Origin: a virus | Lineage: Duplodnaviria > Heunggongvirae > Uroviricota > Caudoviricetes | Strand: one strand, 5' to 3' | Virus record (IMG/VR): IMGVR_UViG_2609460053_000006 | DNA length: 7,242 nucleotides | In this document: piece by piece, positions 1-7,242 of the stretch | Layout: every line of letters starts with the position of its first letter | How positions within the stretch are numbered: the first letter of the stretch is position 1 | Made by a program: the position numbers and the translations under genes | The notes under the pieces: model-generated | Seen by the model: only the letters and a program-made list of their open reading frames with translations | Told to the model about the DNA's origin: nothing | The model's database searches: none

Positions 1-1741
1 GTGGGGGCTGAAGTTGCCGACGTTGCGTCAGCGCCTGTTCCGCTGTGTGAGTATCCGTGAGAACGATGACGGCACGTATGCCATCACTGCCGTGCAGCAT
101 GTACCGGAAAAAGAAGCCATCGTGGATAACGGGGCGCACTTTGACGGCGACCAGAGCGGCACGGTGAATGGTGTCACGCCGCCAGCGGTGCAGCACCTGA
201 CCGCCGAAGTCACCGCAGACAGCGGGGAATATCAGGTGCTGGCGCGCTGGGACACGCCGAAGGTGGTGAAGGGCGTGAGCTTCCTGCTCCGTCTGACCGT
301 AACAGCGGATGACGGCAGTGAGCGGCTGGTCAGCACGGCCCGGACGACGGAAACCACATACCGCTTCACGCAACTGGCGCTGGGGAACTACAGGCTGACA
401 GTCCGGGCGGTAAATGCGTGGGGGCAGCAGGGCGATCCGGCGTCGGTATCGTTCCGGATTGCCGCACCGGCAGCACCGTCGAGGATTGAGCTGACGCCGG
501 GCTATTTTCAGATAACCGCCACGCCGCATCTTGCCGTTTATGACCCGACGGTACAGTTTGAGTTCTGGTTCTCGGAAAAGCGGATTACCGATATCAGGCA
601 GGTTGAAACCACAGCCCGCTATCTTGGTACGGCGCTGTACTGGATAGCCGCCAGTATCAATATCAAACCGGGCCATGATTATTACTTTTATATCCGCAGT
701 GTGAACACCGTTGGCAAATCGGCATTCGTGGAGGCCGTCGGTCGGGCGAGCGATGATGCGGAAGGTTACCTGGATTTTTTCAAAGGCAAGATAACCGAAT
801 CCCATCTCGGTAAAGAGCTGCTGGAAAAAGTTGATCTGACGGAGGATAACGCCAGCAGACTGGATGAGTTTTCGAAAGAGTGGAAGGACGCTAACGATAA
901 ATGGAATGCCATGTGGGGCGTCAAAATTGAGCAGACCAAAGACGGCAAACATTATGTCGCGGGTATTGGCCTCAGCATGGAGGACACGGAGGAAGGCAAG
1001 CTGAGCCAGTTTCTGGTTGCCGCTAACCGTATCGCGTTTATTGACCCGGCAAACGGGAATGAAACGCCGATGTTTGTGGCGCAGGGCAACCAGATATTCA
1101 TGAACGACGTGTTCCTGAAGCGCCTGACAGCCCCCACCATTACCAGCGGTGGCAGTCCTCCGGTATTTTCCCTGACATCAGACGGAAAGCTGACCGCTAA
1201 AAATGCGGATATCAGTGGTAGTGTGAATGCGAACTCAGGAACGCTCAACAATGTCACGATTAACCAGAACTGTACGATTAAGGGCATGCTGGAGGCGACT
1301 CAGGTCAGAGGTGACTTCGTTAAAGCTGTATCCAAATCATTTCCGAAACAGGCTGGTACGTGGGGTAACACGGAAACACCAAACGGGACGGTTACAGTCA
1401 CCATCAGCGATGATCATAACTTTGACCGTCAAATCATTATTCCGCCCATTATCTTTAACGGAATAGCGTATAGCGATCCGGGAAGTGGTAATAACCCGGG
1501 AGGTACAAGATACACGGGTTATGGTTTTGAAGTTCGCAAAAACGGTGTATTAATCGCATCCAGAGAAACTAAAGGGGCCATTCCCGGTAGCTACAGTGCG
1601 GTTATTGATATGCCGAGTGGCAGGGGAAGCGTCACTCTGGAGTTTAAGGTTTTCCATAAAGGCAATCAGTGGGCAGGTAATATCACCGACTGTACGGTGA
1701 TTGTGACCAAAAAAGCCGCTTCCGGCATCAGTATTCGTTGA
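1..1741 (+). CDS. J: Central tail fibre / host specificity protein J, C-terminal 575 aa (5' end lies upstream of the window)
   Basis: Open frame runs from position 2 to TAA at 1739-1741; the track ORF 14..1741 is its in-frame tail. Translation matches my recollection of lambda gpJ C-terminal half ([63 protein letters not shown]...; [60 protein letters not shown]). Gene order J-lom-stf-tfa is the lambda arrangement. Confidence 0.9.
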
Positions 1742-1762
1742 AATTGTTATAACCCATATAAG

Positions 1763-1789
1763 GGCACCAGAAATGGTGCCTTTTTTATT
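1763..1789 (+). terminator. Rho-independent terminator after J
   Basis: Perfect 6-bp stem GGCACC (1763-1768) / loop AGAAAT / GGTGCC (1775-1780), immediately followed by TTTTTTATT (1781-1789). Confidence 0.6.
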
Positions 1790-1810
1790 GCAGAAAAGCG
1801 AGAGGTAATT

Positions 1811-2410
1811 ATGCGTAAACTTTATGCCGCCATTTTGTCCGCAGCCATTTGTCTGGCCGTATCCGGTGCGCCTGCATGGGCGTCTGAACATCAGTCCACG
1901 CTGAGCGCGGGGTATCTTCATGCCTCGACGAACGTTCCCGGCAGCGATGATCTGAACGGGATTAACGTGAAATACCGTTATGAGTTTACGGACACACTGG
2001 GGCTGGTGACGTCATTCAGCTATGCAGGAGACAAGAATCGCCAGCTTACCCGTTACAGCGATACCCGCTGGCATGAAGATTCCGTGCGTAACCGCTGGTT
2101 CAGCGTGATGGCGGGGCCCTCTGTGCGCGTGAATGAATGGTTCAGTGCGTATGCGATGGCGGGCGTGGCTTACAGCCGTGTGTCGACTTTTTCCGGGGAT
2201 TATCTCCGCGTAACTGACAACAAGGGGAAAACGCATGATGTGCTGACCGGAAGTGATGACGGTCGCCACAGCAACACGTCTCTGGCGTGGGGGGCTGGCG
2301 TGCAGTTTAACCCGACCGAATCCGTGGCCATTGATATTGCTTATGAAGGTTCCGGCAGTGGTGACTGGCGCACTGACGGTTTCATCGTGGGTGTCGGTTA
2401 TAAGTTCTGA
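1811..2410 (+). CDS. lom: Outer membrane protein Lom (Ail/Lom family beta-barrel), phage moron
   Basis: 199-aa ORF with SD GAGAGG (1800-1805) 5 nt before ATG 1811. N-terminal signal peptide [25 protein letters not shown]-terminal aromatic residue (..GVGYKF) typical of outer-membrane beta-barrels. Sequence matches my recollection of lambda Lom; position directly after J. Confidence 0.9.
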
Positions 2411-2438
2411 TTAGCCAGGTAACACAGTGTTATGACAG

Positions 2439-2463
2439 CCCGCCGTTTCAGGCGGGATTTTTT
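2439..2463 (+). terminator. Rho-independent terminator after lom
   Basis: Stem CCCGCC (2439-2444) / loop GTTTCA / GGCGGG (2451-2456), followed by ATTTTTTGT with T-run 2458-2463. Confidence 0.6.
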
Positions 2464-2474
2464 GTGGGGTGAAT

Positions 2475-5400
2475 ATGGCAGTAAAGATTTCAGGTGTACT
2501 GAAAGACGGCACAGGAAAACCGGTACAGAACTGCACAATCCAGCTGAAAGCAAAACGTAACAGCACCACGGTGGTGGTGAACACGCTGGCCTCAGAAAAT
2601 CCGGATGAAGCCGGGCGTTACAGCATGGACGTTGAGCACGGTCAGTACAGCGTTATTCTGTTGGTGGAGGGATTCCCGCCATCACATGCCGGGACCATTA
2701 CCGTGTATGAAGATTCCCGACCCGGTACGCTGAATGATTTTCTCGGTGCCATGACGGAGGATGATGCCCGTCCGGAGGCACTGCGCCGTTTTGAGCTGAT
2801 GGTGGAAGAGGTGGCGCGTAACGCGTCCGCGGTGGCACAGAACACGGCAGCCGCGAAGAAGTCAGCCAGCGATGCCAGCACATCAGCCCGTGAGGCGGCA
2901 ACCCATGCGACTGATGCTGCAGGCTCAGCACGCGCAGCCAGCACGTCAGCCGGACAGGCCGCGTCGTCGGCTCAGTCAGCGTCTTCCAGCGCAGGATCGG
3001 CATCAACAAAGGCTACTGAAGCATCAAAAAGTGCTGCCGCTGCAGAGTCCTCAAAAAGCGCGGCGGCCACCAGTGCCGGTGCAGCAAAAACGTCAGAAAC
3101 GAATGCGGCAGCGTCACAACAATCAGCCGCCACTTCTGCATCCACCGCGACTACGAAAGCGTCAGAAGCAGCCTCCTCAGCCCGGGATGCGGCGGTTTCA
3201 AAAGAGGCGGCAAAATCATCAGAAACGAACGCATCCTCGAGCGCCAGTAGCGCAGCTTCCTCGGCAACGGCGGCAGCAAATTCCGCGAAGGCGGCAAAAA
3301 CGTCCGAGACGAACGCTAAGTCTTCTGAGACGGCAGCGGAACAGAGTGCCTCCGCAGCAGCAGACTCAAAAACAGCGGCTGCATCATCTGCCAGCGCCGC
3401 GTCAACAAGTGCCGGGCAGGCCTCAGCCAGTGCCACCGCTGCCGGAAAGTCGGCAGAAAGTGCTGCATCGTCTGCTTCAACAGCCACAACGAATGCTGGC
3501 GAAGCCGCTGTACAGGCCAGCGCAGCCGCGAGGTCAGCTTCCGCAGCGAAGACATCCGAGACGAACGCGAAAGCGTCGGAAACCAGCGCAGAATCCTCAA
3601 AAACGGCTGCCGCATCATCCGCCAGTTCGGCGGCGTCATCGGCATCATCTGCGTCTGCTTCAAAAGATGAGGCGACCAGACAGGCGTCAGCAGCGAAGGG
3701 CAGCGCCACGACAGCATCCACGAAGGCGACAGAGGCAGCTGGCAGTGCGACGGCGGCAGCACAGAGCAAAAGTACGGCGGAATCCGCGGCAACGCGCGCC
3801 GAGACAGCGGCAAAACGGGCAGAGGATATTGCATCCGCCGTGGCGCTTGAGGATGCGAGCACGACGAAAAAGGGGGTAGTACAGCTCAGCAGTGCGACCA
3901 ACAGTACGTCTGAAACGCTGGCGGCAACGCCAAAGGCAGTAAAATCAGCCTATGACAATGCAGAGAAACGTCTGCAGAAAGACCAGAACGGCGCTGATAT
4001 ACCCGATAAGGGACGCTTCCTGAACAACATTAACGCGGTCAGTAAAACAGACTTTGCTGATAAGCGCGGTATGCGTTATGTGCGGGTTAACGCTCCTGCA
4101 GGTGCAACATCTGGAAAATATTACCCTGTTGTTGTTATGCGTTCTGCTGGCTCAGTAAGCGAACTGGCATCAAGGGTCATTATCACCACGGCAACGCGAA
4201 CCGCAGGCGATCCGATGAATAACTGCGAGTTTAACGGATTTGTTATGCCTGGTGGCCGGACTGACAGGGGGCGTTATGCTTATGGAATGTTCTGGCAATA
4301 TCAAAACAATGAACGAGCCATCCACTCAATAATGATGAGTAATAAGGGCGATGATTTGCGCTCTGTGTTCTATGTTGATGGCGCTGCTTTCCCTGTTTTT
4401 GCGTTTATCGAAGATGGCCTGTCAATATCCGCACCTGGTGCTGATCTGGTTGTTAATGATACGACCTATAAGTTTGGGGCAACAAATCCGGCGACTGAAT
4501 GTATCGCGGCGGACGTTATCCTTGATTTTAAGAGTGGGCGTGGTTTTTATGAGTCTCATTCGTTAATCGTTAACGATAACTTGTCGTGCAAAAAACTTTT
4601 TGCCACAGACGAAATTGTAGCGCGTGGTGGTAATCAGATTCGAATGATAGGTGGGGAGTATGGTGCATTATGGCGTAATGATGGCACTAAAACTTACCTG
4701 CTGCTTACCAATCAAGGTGATGTTTATGGTGGCTGGAATACATTAAGACCGTTTGCTATTAATAACGCAACCGGCGAACTGATTATTGGAACCAAACTGT
4801 CCGCAAGTCTGAACGGTAATGCATTAACAGCAACAAAGCTGCAAACGCCAAGACTGGTTTCTGGTGTTGAGTTTGATGGTTCCAAAGATATTACTTTAAC
4901 CGCCGCGCATGTGGCTGCTTTTGCCAGAAGGGCAACGGATACATATGCCGATGCGGATGGTGGCGTTCCCTGGAATGCCGAATCAGGCGCTTACAATGTC
5001 ACCCGCTCTGGCGACAGCTATATTCTGGTTAACTTCTATACCGGAGTCGGAAGTTGCCGGACCCTGCAGATGAAGGCGCATTACAGAAATGGAGGTCTGT
5101 TCTACCGTTCCTCAAGAGATGGCTATGGTTTTGAGGAAGACTGGGCAGAAGTTTATACCTCGAAAAATCTTCCACCAGAAAGCTACCCAGTCGGCGCACC
5201 AATCCCGTGGCCATCAGATACCGTTCCGTCTGGCTATGCCCTGATGCAGGGGCAGACTTTTGACAAATCTGCATACCCGAAACTTGCAGTGGCTTATCCG
5301 TCAGGCGTTATTCCTGATATGCGTGGCTGGACGATTAAGGGCAAGCCCGCCAGTGGTCGTGCCGTATTGTCTCAGGAACAGGACGGCATTAAATCGCACA

Positions 5401-5873
5401 CCCACAGCGCCAGCGCATCCAGTACGGATTTGGGTACGAAAACCACATCGTCGTTTGATTACGGCACTAAATCCACGAATAACACCGGGGCTCATACGCA
5501 TAGTCTGAGCGGCTCTACAAGCTCGGCTGGAGCACACTCGCACGTTGATGGGCGCAGGTTTAATACAAGCACTTTTAAAGACACCTATCAGTATGGTTCT
5601 ACAGCTGTCGGAAGTAACTCATACCAGGTACAAGGGGCGGTTGGTCTGGGCGTTGGTACGATGGCGAATACGAACTCTGCTGGCGCGCACACCCACTCAC
5701 TGTCCGGCACTGCTGCAAGCGCAGGCGCACACGCACATACTGTCGGTATTGGTGCACACACGCACTCCGTTGCGATTGGTTCACATGGACACACCATCAC
5801 CGTTAACGCTGCTGGTAACGCGGAAAACACCGTCAAAAACATTGCATTTAACTATATTGTGAGGCTTGCATAA
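2475..5873 (+). CDS. stf: Side tail fibre protein Stf, intact long form (1132 aa from ATG 2475; the track ORF uses in-frame GTG 2469)
   Basis: N-terminus [26 protein letters not shown] matches my recollection of lambda Stf; GGGGTG lies just upstream of ATG 2475. Contains a long Ala/Ser-rich repeat region, a [28 protein letters not shown] fibre-repeat motif, and a C-terminal His-rich HxH region ([45 protein letters not shown]...GAHTHS...) shared by lambda Stf / T4 gp37-type fibres. Stop TAA 5871-5873. Confidence 0.88.
2811..3861 (+). repeat. Degenerate in-frame tandem repeats encoding the Ala/Ser/Thr-rich low-complexity shaft of Stf
   Basis: Recurrent nucleotide unit aaaacgtcagaaacgaatgc and variants at about 3087, 3213, 3297 and 3548, encoding AAK(T/S)SETNA; surrounding sequence is GCN-rich alanine codons. 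Spacing is irregular (43, 27 and 84 codons). Confidence 0.7.
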
Positions 5874-6457
5874 TGGCATTCAGAATGAGTGAACAACCAC
5901 GGACCATAAAAATTTATAATCTGCTGGCCGGAACTAATGAATTTATTGGTGAAGGTGACGCATATATTCCGCCTCATACAGGTCTGCCAGCAAACAGCAC
6001 CTATATTGCACCGCCAGATATTCCTGCTGGCTTTGTGGCTGTTTTCAACAGTGATGAGGCATCGTGGCATCTCGTTGAAGACCATCGGGGTAAAACGGTT
6101 TATGACGTAGCGTCAGGGGGCGAGTTATTTATTTCTGAACTCGGTCCGTTACCGGAAAATGTTACCTGGTTATCGCCGGAAGGGGAGTTTCAGAAGTGGA
6201 ACGGCACAGCCTGGGTGAAAGATGCAGAAGCAGAAAAACTGTTCCGGATCCGAGAGGCGGAAGAAATAAAAAACAGCCTGATGCAGGTAGCCAGTGAGCA
6301 TATTGCGCCACTTCAGGATGCTGTAGATCTGGAAATCGCAACGGAGGAAGAAACCTCATTGCTGGAAGCCTGGAAAAAGTATCGGGTGTTGCTGAACCGT
6401 GTTGATACATCAACTGCACCTGATATTGAGTGGCCTACGAACCCTGTCAGGGAGTAA
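5873..6457 (+). CDS. tfa: Tail fibre assembly protein Tfa (chaperone for Stf)
   Basis: 194-aa ORF; SD TGAGG (5860-5864) 8 nt upstream; ATG overlaps the stf stop (TAATG). Sequence [34 protein letters not shown]... matches my recollection of lambda Tfa and sits immediately 3' of stf. Confidence 0.9.
6293..6370 (+). repeat. Direct repeat copy 1 (tfa 3' module); copy 2 is at 7165-7242
   Basis: agtgag[c/t]atattgcgccact[t/g]caggatgctgtagatctggaaatcgcaacggaggaagaaa is shared with 2 mismatches over 61 nt, and similarity continues with more mismatches to the window end. Same orientation and same reading frame in both copies. Confidence 0.85.
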
Positions 6458-6470
6458 TCATTGGGATTAT

Positions 6471-6520
6471 GCCGCAGCACGTCTTAAGCAAGAACGTGCT
6501 GCGGTTGGATGCTATTTTTT
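6471..6520 (+). terminator. Hairpin between convergent genes, probable tfa terminator (possibly bidirectional)
   Basis: Inverted repeat GCCGCAGCACG (6471-6481) / 13-nt loop / CGTGCTGCGG (6495-6504), then a T7 run at 6514-6520 about 10 nt after the stem. It lies between the tfa stop (6457) and the stop of the reverse-strand gene (6512-6514). The U-tract is not directly adjacent, so confidence is moderate. Confidence 0.4.
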
Positions 6521-7003
6521 CCCTGAAGCGGAAAACATTACTACAGTACCTTGAACCTTGGTTTTAACATTCTCGAAATGCTCTGAGAGTATATGTGTTA
6601 AGCCTTCTTCGGAATCTTTTGTGTTTGAAAAGATGCCTTTGGAATCAAATTGACCATGTAACGCCGCGGGATAAGGTTCAAAAACATCATGGCTAATTTT
6701 ATGTTTAATTTTTGATTCCCCAGCCCTTGTAGATGCCGCGTTCAGGCTAGCTTCGTTCAAATCCATTAAAGATATCAGACTACTCTCAGGTACGTGAGTA
6801 AGGTAAAACCCAGTTCCAACACCAATATCCAGATGGTTGTTACCTACATGTTCCAGAAAGTGTGGAAGAAGGTGTTCCTTTGTAGGACATCCCCATGCAA
6901 GCCGATTTGATACTCCCAAAACCCACCAGTCATAAAGCTTTAGGGTAAGTGGTGTGTAAATTTTAGCCCCATCATCTGTGTTTTTTTTCATTGATTTCAC
7001 CAT
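6512..7003 (-). CDS. Short class I SAM-dependent methyltransferase-like protein (Rossmann-fold core only; possibly truncated) on an AT-rich accessory island
   Basis: 163-aa reverse-strand ORF. Motif I HLDIGVGTG (verified by reverse-complementing 6808-6835), acidic post-I residue in LISLMDLNEASL, motif II/III-like HDVFEPYP...GQFDSKGIFSN, and an N-terminal YDWW..SNRLAW element resembling UbiE-type methyltransferases. Markedly AT-richer than flanking tail genes. Start ambiguous: ATG 7003 has no SD, while in-frame ATG 6991 is preceded by GGTGA. Only about 100 aa follow motif I, shorter than typical class I enzymes. Confidence 0.55.
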   Translation of the reverse strand: MVKSMKKNTDDGAKIYTPLTLKLYDWWVLGVSNRLAWGCPTKEHLLPHFLEHVGNNHLDIGVGTGFYLTHVPESSLISLMDLNEASLNAASTRAGESKIKHKISHDVFEPYPAALHGQFDSKGIFSNTKDSEEGLTHILSEHFENVKTKVQGTVVMFSASGKK

Positions 7004-7032
7004 GTTATAGTTTTATTTGTGAATTAAATCAA
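7004..7032 (-). promoter_or_regulatory. Candidate sigma70 promoter for the reverse-strand methyltransferase-like gene
   Basis: On the - strand: TTGATT (complement of 7027-7032), 17-nt spacer, TATAAC (complement of 7004-7009), inside an AT-rich divergent intergenic region. The predicted start site would fall near 6997, which favours ATG 6991 as the true start. Sequence pattern only. Confidence 0.25.
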
Positions 7033-7059
7033 TTATGGCGATGAATTACAAGGGGTTAA

Positions 7060-7242
7060 ATGCTGCCGCAGCATAGCGATATTGAAATAGCCTGGTATGC
7101 TTCGATACAGCAGGAGCCGAATGGCTGGAAGACCGTCACCACACAGTTCTACATCCAGGAATTCAGTGAGTATATTGCGCCACTGCAGGATGCTGTAGAT
7201 CTGGAAATCGCAACGGAGGAAGAAAGATCGTTGCTGGAGGCA
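7060..7242 (+). CDS. Second tail-fibre-assembly-like gene, N-terminal 61 codons (runs off the 3' end of the window)
   Basis: ATG 7060 preceded by SD AAGGGG (7050-7055); open to the window end. Translation [61 protein letters not shown] has a novel N-terminus, then becomes near-identical to Tfa residues [25 protein letters not shown] (nucleotides 7165-7242 vs 6293-6370). Confidence 0.7.
   Translation, partial: MLPQHSDIEIAWYASIQQEPNGWKTVTTQFYIQEFSEYIAPLQDAVDLEIATEEERSLLEA

Follow-up and report, generated by a model that had tools for sequence, protein, structure and literature searches.

The window, which is the whole 7,242-nucleotide stretch of viral DNA analyzed here, covers the right-hand end of a lambdoid prophage. 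Open reading frames (ORFs) and domain searches revealed the gene order J, lom, stf, tfa, a methyltransferase gene on the minus strand, and a short tfa-like ORF (Table 1). The closest complete genome is that of E. coli TUM13867 (locus L002), which is 99.9% identical to window positions 1–6640 and 99.7% identical to positions 6640–7242. The counterpart of stf in TUM13867 is annotated as stfR or phage tail protein, and its tfa is 100% identical to that of the window. Residues 72–191 of the window's Tfa match the Pfam family Caudo_TAP (E 4e-44) over profile positions 1–130 of 131, which constitutes a full-length family match, and the protein matches phrog_105 with an E value of 6e-99. Homologous proteins of 194 amino acids encoded at loci L011–L013 contain both Caudo_TAP_N (PF28596, the N-terminal domain) and Caudo_TAP (PF02413). 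At least 80% of window positions 5800–7242 was found in 1,492 of 5,426 complete E. coli genomes; the block is also present in inducible phages, examples of which are PhiR26_1, 2G7b, ev243, and Turner.

Table 1 Features of the window and the evidence or description attached to each
Feature	Position	Strand	Evidence or description
J, tail-tip protein, C-terminal part	14–1741		ORFs and domain searches
lom	1811–2410		ORFs and domain searches
stf, side tail fibre gene, upstream partner of tfa	2475–5873	+	Pfam phage_tail_N (E 3e-71), Gp34_trimer, Collar, Phage_fiber
tfa, complete, tail fibre assembly protein, 194 aa	5873–6457	+	Caudo_TAP, phrog_105
Left copy of direct repeat	6281–6412	+	tfa codons 137–180, conserved C-terminal module; 132 nt, 88% to second copy in TUM13867
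Putative gene-conversion tract inside repeat	6322–6361	+	Eight consecutive informative sites
Hairpin, terminator-like, between convergent tfa and methyltransferase genes	6471–6503	.	RNA fold
ybcY-like class I SAM-dependent methyltransferase (predicted), cargo gene	6512–7003	-	Pfam and PHROG, through the full-length TUM13867 form
AT-rich divergent intergenic region	7004–7059	.	One promoter-like site for methyltransferase
tfaX-like ORF, 5' part	7060–7152	+	From a phrog_3893-type 79-aa ORF, not tfa
Right copy of direct repeat	7153–7242	+	tfa codons 137 onward; cut by window end

Downstream of the short ORF, which resembles tfaX of E. coli K-12, TUM13867 carries genes for an alpha/beta hydrolase, ompT, envY, ybcH, and nfrA. 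This neighborhood is the chromosomal site of the cryptic prophage DLP12 in K-12. A preliminary description of this DNA had suggested checking this position for a second stf-like or an invertase gene; neither follows in the closest relatives, which have the hydrolase gene, ompT, and envY instead.

The locus has the tfaD-ybcY-tfaX configuration known from the annotation of E. coli K-12, a genuine but commonplace arrangement. In DLP12 of strain MG1655, tfaD-ybcY-tfaX (b0561–b0563) has the same gene order, strands, and neighborhood (ompT, envY, ybcH, nfrA) as the window and TUM13867. Its DNA is 98% identical to window positions 6019–7238, and the direct repeat described below is present in both. 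In contrast to the window, DLP12 has decayed: tfaD is truncated at its 5' end, ybcY is a pseudogene, and tfaX stops at codon 62. K-12 has appY after tfaX, whereas TUM13867, the window's relative, has the alpha/beta hydrolase gene. In the window J, lom, stf, and tfa have all remained intact, and the methyltransferase gene has its own in-frame deletion of 177 bp.

A repeat finder aligned window positions 6281–6369 with positions 7153–7241 over 89 nt with 89% identity. The 78-nt repeat noted in the preliminary description (6293–6370 and 7165–7242) is direct and in the same codon register, with 7 mismatches (91% identity), and the 61-nt core that it had delineated (6293–6353) contains exactly two mismatches, at 6299 and 6313. 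The repeat begins 12 nt farther to the left than proposed, at 6281 and 7153. Also borne out was the assignment of the repeat to tail-fibre-assembly sequence, as both copies correspond to tfa codons 137 onward. The register of the two copies is identical in their own ORFs (codon 141 of tfa and codon 36 of the second ORF). The direct repeat is not a chance similarity, a possibility that the preliminary description had judged unlikely: the window's longest exact direct repeat measures 40 nt (6314–6353), whereas in 200 first-order Markov shuffles this length averaged 12.4 nt and never exceeded 16 nt.

The preliminary description had suggested extending the sequence past position 7242; the repeat does continue there, where the sequence is that of relatives and not of the window's genome. 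In TUM13867 the repeat spans 132 nt (window 6281–6412) with 88% identity and then diverges; in K-12 DLP12 it spans 157 nt with 85% identity. An older form of the locus (L010–L013) contains a repeat of 233 nt that extends from tfa position 409 through the stop codon to the downstream hairpin. Because this 233-nt repeat takes in the stop codon and the hairpin, the original duplicated unit would have been the 3' end of tfa together with its terminator hairpin, a segment that reaches beyond coding sequence. Tfa proteins are described in published structural work as modular: the N-terminal domain varies and binds the fibre, and the C-terminal domain, which is helical and conserved, mediates trimerisation (PMC9608196, citing North et al. 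2019). What is repeated here is this conserved C-terminal module, which many otherwise different tail-fibre cassettes have in common.

The second ORF opens at position 7060 on the plus strand and runs off the window; in TUM13867 it encodes 101 amino acids. Pfam aligned the part inside the window to Caudo_TAP profile positions 75–105 only. In the TUM13867 form, BLASTP aligned residues 32–77 alone to Tfa, at Tfa residues 137–182 with 85% identity, and the final ~25 residues bear no relation to the end of Tfa. The second ORF of the window/TUM13867 lineage has lost the true C-terminus of Tfa. Its other end has a different source. Residues 3–37 match phrog_3893, and BLASTP revealed 53% identity (E 6e-12) between the N-terminus and a 79-amino acid ORF of Klebsiella phage Kp4882-3 that is a full-length member of phrog_3893. 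Phage Ayreon contains an unfused homologue of the 79-amino acid ORF, now a pseudogene, whose alignment with the Klebsiella ORF extends to residue 50. The DNA homology between Ayreon and TUM13867 ends at the equivalent of window position 7146, just short of the start of the repeat at 7153. Because the first ~31 codons are of phrog_3893 type and the remainder is the tfa module, tfaX is an in-frame chimera of ~31 codons from an unrelated small gene and tfa codons 137 onward.

A search of 5.8 billion proteins produced 652 matches, and among the 120 of these that were listed there is no full-length Tfa that covers the N-terminus of tfaX; the 120 listed proteins have only the C-terminal module in common or are variants of tfaX. 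In RefSeq the second ORF of TUM13867 is a tail fiber assembly pseudogene, flagged as incomplete and without an N-terminus. The ORF is without the variable N-terminal, fibre-binding part of Tfa and falls outside the full Tfa family. Where the preliminary description saw tandem tfa paralogues, the shared C-terminal module holds, but a paralogue with a different N-terminus does not, given that the first ~31 codons are phrog_3893-type. A more complete and older form of tfaX is found in P2-like prophage remnants adjoining smpB (L010–L013). This form is an 89-amino acid ORF that terminates in a genuine Tfa C-terminus, ...APDIEWPAVPVME.

Between the two copies of the repeat lies an island that begins with the hairpin. 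Its predicted fold has a free energy of -28.5 kcal/mol (z = -6.2), which was equaled in none of 200 shuffles, and in L011 the hairpin is duplicated along with the 3' end of tfa. Despite the strength of this hairpin, a scan for consensus terminators returned no match. The methyltransferase gene of the window carries its 177-bp in-frame deletion at position 6640, as mapped against relatives. The full-length protein of TUM13867 (222 amino acids) matches Methyltransf_12, 23, 25, and 11 in Pfam and phrog_2132 with an E value of 8e-157; NCBIfam and PADLOC gave no informative assignment. The ybcY-like protein is predicted to be a generic class I methyltransferase. GC content across positions 6500–7100 is 0.37–0.44, compared with 0.45–0.60 in stf and tfa (~0.5 in the flanks). 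The divergent region upstream of the methyltransferase gene contains a promoter-like site on the minus strand (7059–7032, TTAACC-16-CATAAT). Such sites are no more numerous than expected from shuffled sequence, and as a methyltransferase promoter this one is only suggestive.

Morons, a concept of the Hendrix laboratory, are extra cargo genes that lie between conserved late genes of lambdoid phages. The island seems to behave like such a cargo gene. It consists of a gene of unrelated function on the opposite strand, with a 3' hairpin and a GC content lower than and unlike that of its flanks; it lies beyond the tail-fibre genes; and it is missing from some related genomes. The genes on its two sides are adjacent in relatives: in nine E. 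coli genomes tfa leads into appY-ompT, and Ayreon is without ybcY. In both cases the absence of ybcY looks like a derived deletion rather than the ancestral state. The loss in Ayreon is a separate deletion (window equivalent of about 6549–7033) that kept the final 37 nt of the gene. Unlike morons, the island is bracketed by a 132–233-nt duplication of phage sequence and contains part of a second small gene, fused to tfa. Nor does it resemble a transposable element, as the window contains no transposase ORF, no terminal inverted repeats surround positions 6457–7152, and the flanking duplication of 132–233 nt differs from the short target-site duplication of such elements.

To characterize the relationship between the two copies, we compared those of the window/TUM13867 lineage with the two copies of L011. 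At all eight informative sites between positions 6322 and 6361, the two copies of one genome group together, whereas at the remaining 7 informative sites within 6281–6412 it is the orthologues that do so. The probability that all eight sites would be contiguous is about 8/6435. Convergent selection on the protein does not explain this pattern, because most of the sites in the tract are synonymous third positions. The comparison shows gene conversion: a ~40-nt core has been homogenized by non-reciprocal exchange between the copies.

Recombination between direct repeats would, as the preliminary description proposed, excise the island and create a chimeric tfa. We searched for such products with a junction query composed of the tfa-specific left flank, the repeat, and the sequence downstream of tfaX, and required 80% coverage in one place, which a two-copy genome cannot attain. 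The K-12/appY-type junction was found in nine of the 5,426 complete E. coli genomes, each time as one contiguous match at the same chromosomal site; these are the related prophages without the island that the preliminary description had said to look for. The hydrolase-type junction was absent from all 5,426 complete genomes, and IMG/VR contained neither the hydrolase nor the appY type. Three of the loci (L016–L018) were fetched with long flanks and read J-lom-stf-tfa-appY-ompT-envY-ybcH-nfrA, without ybcY and without tfaX. Eight of the nine one-copy loci were read site by site, and each of the eight is a clean chimera whose left part is of tfaD type and whose right part is of tfaX type. These loci exhibit four switch patterns, with at least three clearly distinct breakpoints inside the repeat. 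The one-copy chimeras show that crossovers between the copies can delete the island and leave a single hybrid tfa. Such a deletion would shorten the window by about 0.87 kb, and relatives with the full-length methyltransferase gene by about 1.05 kb; the hybrid Tfa proteins comprise a 191-amino acid form ending in DIEWLIQP and a hydrolase-type form with 26 foreign residues. Two of the eight (L017 and L020) carry the TGA stop of tfaX, which is annotated as an "internal stop"; since this is the TGA of the decayed tfaX, these loci derive from a two-copy ancestor and do not precede it.

In the hydrolase-type lineage, which is the window's own, a gapped-pattern scan, validated with known positives, recovered the same deletion in three metagenome contigs (OIPA01000587.1, OLFH01002446.1, and OHAV01003872.1). 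The proposal that recombination removes the island extends to this lineage with some reserve: in all three contigs the switch falls within the 40 identical nucleotides, a place where mis-assembly could also occur, and the deletions could be real or could be assembly joins.

These observations bear on the manner in which the island came to be bracketed. According to one explanation, which the preliminary description adopted, the cargo island was inserted into or exchanged within a once-continuous tfa so that the 3' module became duplicated on both sides, and the single-tfa genomes represent the ancestral empty site. The direct repeats around the island, its lower GC content, and the existence of uninterrupted tfa to appY-ompT genomes at the same site are all in keeping with this explanation. 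However, the right copy is immediately preceded by the 5' end of a phrog_3893-type gene that remains unfused in Ayreon, the duplicated unit passes the tfa stop codon and continues through the hairpin, the single-tfa loci switch from tfaD-type to tfaX-type at different points, and L017 and L020, with the TGA of the decayed tfaX, represent a derived and not an ancestral state. That an insertion split a single tfa is the less likely course because the duplicated unit exceeds the gene, the flank is a fragment of another gene, and the one-copy genomes are derived; we regard it as improbable, though it retains more weight than the other alternatives considered below.

We infer instead that an illegitimate join took place on the right side of the island, since in its most complete form the second copy extends over the tfa stop codon and the hairpin, and Ayreon keeps the unfused homologue of the 79-amino acid ORF. 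Prior to the join, the small ORF would have lain beside ybcY, downstream of tfa. One illegitimate join would then have fused this ORF, at codon ~31, to a further copy of tfa, at codon 137; that copy would have retained its stop codon, hairpin, and right arm, and a redundant tfa 3' end would have been left behind. The second tfa may have come from a second phage genome or from a tandem duplicate, two routes that are indistinguishable here. The resulting arrangement consists of an intact tfa followed by the hairpin, a low-GC cargo methyltransferase on the opposite strand, and the chimeric remnant tfaX. The two copies still recombine: conversion has homogenized them in part, and crossovers remove the island. 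Taken as a whole, this account of tfaD-ybcY-tfaX (a chimeric tfaX remnant, an origin by illegitimate join, and copies that still recombine) is in our judgment probably correct.

Several features of tfaX invite the question of whether it encodes a functional second protein, a short Tfa-like product with trimerising helices on a new N-terminus that serves a second fibre or acts as a modulator. The start codon and first ~60 codons are retained in many lineages; the protein has its own PHROG (phrog_2341, 88 amino acids); some clusters are large, the 82-amino acid form being present on about 1,000 contigs; and dN/dS of the ORF between lineages is 0.19. This last value is not used as a sign of function because conversion imports selected variation from the functional tfa, which can account for a low dN/dS. 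Set against a functional role are the missing N-terminal fibre-binding domain, C-terminal ends that differ across lineages (61, 82, 89, and 101 amino acids, plus frameshifted forms), the premature stop in K-12, the RefSeq label of incomplete pseudogene, and the loss of tfaX in nine genomes in which the remainder of the prophage late region is intact. We consider a functional second gene highly unlikely; tfaX most likely has no function in the tail fibre.

A more specific proposal is that tfaX (phrog_2341, ~88 amino acids) is a working chimeric protein in which the trimerising helices of Tfa, placed on an unrelated N-terminal peptide, act as a dominant-negative decoy. Expressed from the prophage, it would form mixed assemblies with Tfa from a superinfecting phage and disrupt the assembly of that phage's fibres. 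This reading we rate as marginally less credible still. The conserved start, low dN/dS, and wide spread of tfaX are compatible with a decoy, whereas its variable C-terminal ends, premature stops, and repeated loss are opposed to one.

The preferred account, a chimeric remnant whose repeat still recombines with tfa, can be placed beside other systems in which tail-fibre genes rearrange. Haggard-Ljungquist in 1992 and Sandmeier in 1994 reportedly described mosaic tail-fibre cassettes that are exchanged through conserved linker sequence. Similarly, junctions at the present locus fall in or beside the conserved 3' module of tfa. In 2G7b and ev243, a different fibre cassette joins the window sequence at 6338 and leaves a 120-nt tfa remnant. 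ev099, PhiR42_1, PhiR68_2, and Turner diverge from the window at 6435; PhiR68_2 and Turner then have a 1.76-kb pin-ynaE block before homology returns at 6472. On the side of tfaX, the two types of right arm (hydrolase and appY) branch off at the equivalents of about 6412 and 6437. Unlike cassette exchange between phages, both recombination partners are present here in tandem in one genome, so that exchange yields deletion or conversion rather than a swap of host range.

Two candidate observations from these comparisons were set aside. ev099, in which tfa is followed by a gene for an AraC-family regulator, was considered as an "empty site" and rejected, as its DNA shows no homology to tfaX-appY of K-12. 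Megablast homology from 6292 in Kati, PhiR68_2, and Turner had suggested a third tfa remnant upstream of ybcY, but this was an artefact; direct blastn revealed that megablast had joined non-colinear pieces and that the real order is tfa, the 1.76-kb pin-ynaE block, and ybcY-tfaX.

The Mu G, P1 C, and e14 P segments likewise contain tail-fibre and tfa genes with duplicated tfa-related sequence, and the locus might be viewed as part of an invertible host-range switch of this type. Such content is usual for a switch, and a pin invertase gene lies between tfa and ybcY in Turner and PhiR68_2. The known segments have inverted repeats, alternative genes in opposite orientation, and a Gin, Cin, or Pin invertase, none of which applies here. 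The repeats are direct, an orientation that already refutes this reading; both tfa sequences are on the same strand; and neither the window nor the next 6 kb downstream in TUM13867 contains an invertase gene. We assign an invertible switch essentially no probability.

The processes at this locus are those of textbook phage mosaicism, and the value of the analysis lies mostly in good annotation. Genes annotated as "TfaX" or "second tail fiber assembly protein" are chimeric remnants and not extra chaperones. For the engineering and typing of prophages, the repeat is a predictable site of low-frequency deletion, and deletion of the island removes the ybcY methyltransferase and alters the C-terminus of Tfa. 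The conserved C-terminal module of Tfa is a patch of homology at which the tail-fibre regions of E. coli prophages are joined, homogenized, and trimmed.

Comparison with relatives revealed that the window lacks 177 bp of the methyltransferase gene (ybcY in K-12), which corresponds to an in-frame loss of 59 codons encoding approximately residues 122–180 of the 222-residue protein. This segment is present in phage PhiR26_1 (L001), E. coli TUM13867 (L002), phage 2G7b (L004), and K-12. A search of 5,426 complete E. coli genomes with a 45-nt query centered on the deletion junction gave no match. The shortened gene product is probably a dead enzyme because much of its fold has been removed, although the SAM-binding motif is retained.

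Phage Ayreon has lost all of ybcY except its last 37 nt through a separate deletion. Ayreon retains a short remnant of the 3' end of tfa behind a fibre gene of a different type, which appears to be chaperone-independent, together with the phrog_3893 ORF, which persists unfused as a pseudogene copy. In PhiR68_2 (L006) and Turner (L009), tfa and ybcY are separated by a block that contains ynaE and a serine invertase of the pin type, but these two phages show no alternative fibre segment in inverted orientation.

Coordinates of features in the window and its relatives
Feature	Coordinates	Strand	Remarks
Methyltransferase gene	window 6512-7003	minus	deletion point at window 6640
45-aa ORF	window 6430-6567	plus	RefSeq hypothetical protein WP_001309429.1 in L002
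stf direct repeats	window 2800-3850		26-45 nt, 60-85% identity
Ayreon region with the ybcY deletion	L014 3286-3653		deletion at window-equivalent about 6549-7033
pin-ynaE block, 1.76 kb	L006 and L009 2243-4001		window-equivalent 6435-6472
Alpha/beta hydrolase cassette	L002 7667-9548	minus	494-aa hydrolase; PADLOC 'TAP-like protein', E 2e-56
appY cassette	L005 (K-12) 7105-8635		alternative to hydrolase cassette
tfaX/appY intergenic region	L005 ~7060-7680		listed promoter island

Within the window, the interior of stf contains several families of imperfect direct repeats that code for the Ala/Ser-rich, 'KTSETNA'-type portion of the fibre shaft. The 45-aa ORF overlaps the end of tfa, extends across the hairpin, and reaches into the methyltransferase gene at its 3' end; it looks like an over-call.

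The interval between tfaX and ompT, which encodes an outer-membrane protease, holds either of two cassettes: an alpha/beta hydrolase in TUM13867 versus appY in K-12. The left boundary of this swap falls within the tfa remnant, and a published table (PMC3661553) of 'promoter islands' in DNA gained by horizontal transfer includes the K-12 tfaX/appY intergenic region. ompT is cargo in PhiR26_1, 2G7b, ev243 (L007), and Turner, all of which are sequenced phage genomes, several with a recorded propagation host. In these phages, ompT is flanked by the tail-fibre region on one side and by the integrase or the genome end on the other.

The tfa-ybcY-tfaX trio is also found in P2-like (myovirus-type) prophage remnants adjoining smpB in four E. 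coli contigs (L010-L013), where its neighbors are P2 baseplate and fibre genes; in L010, the block directly abuts gpD. It follows that the block has moved between P2-like and lambdoid prophages.
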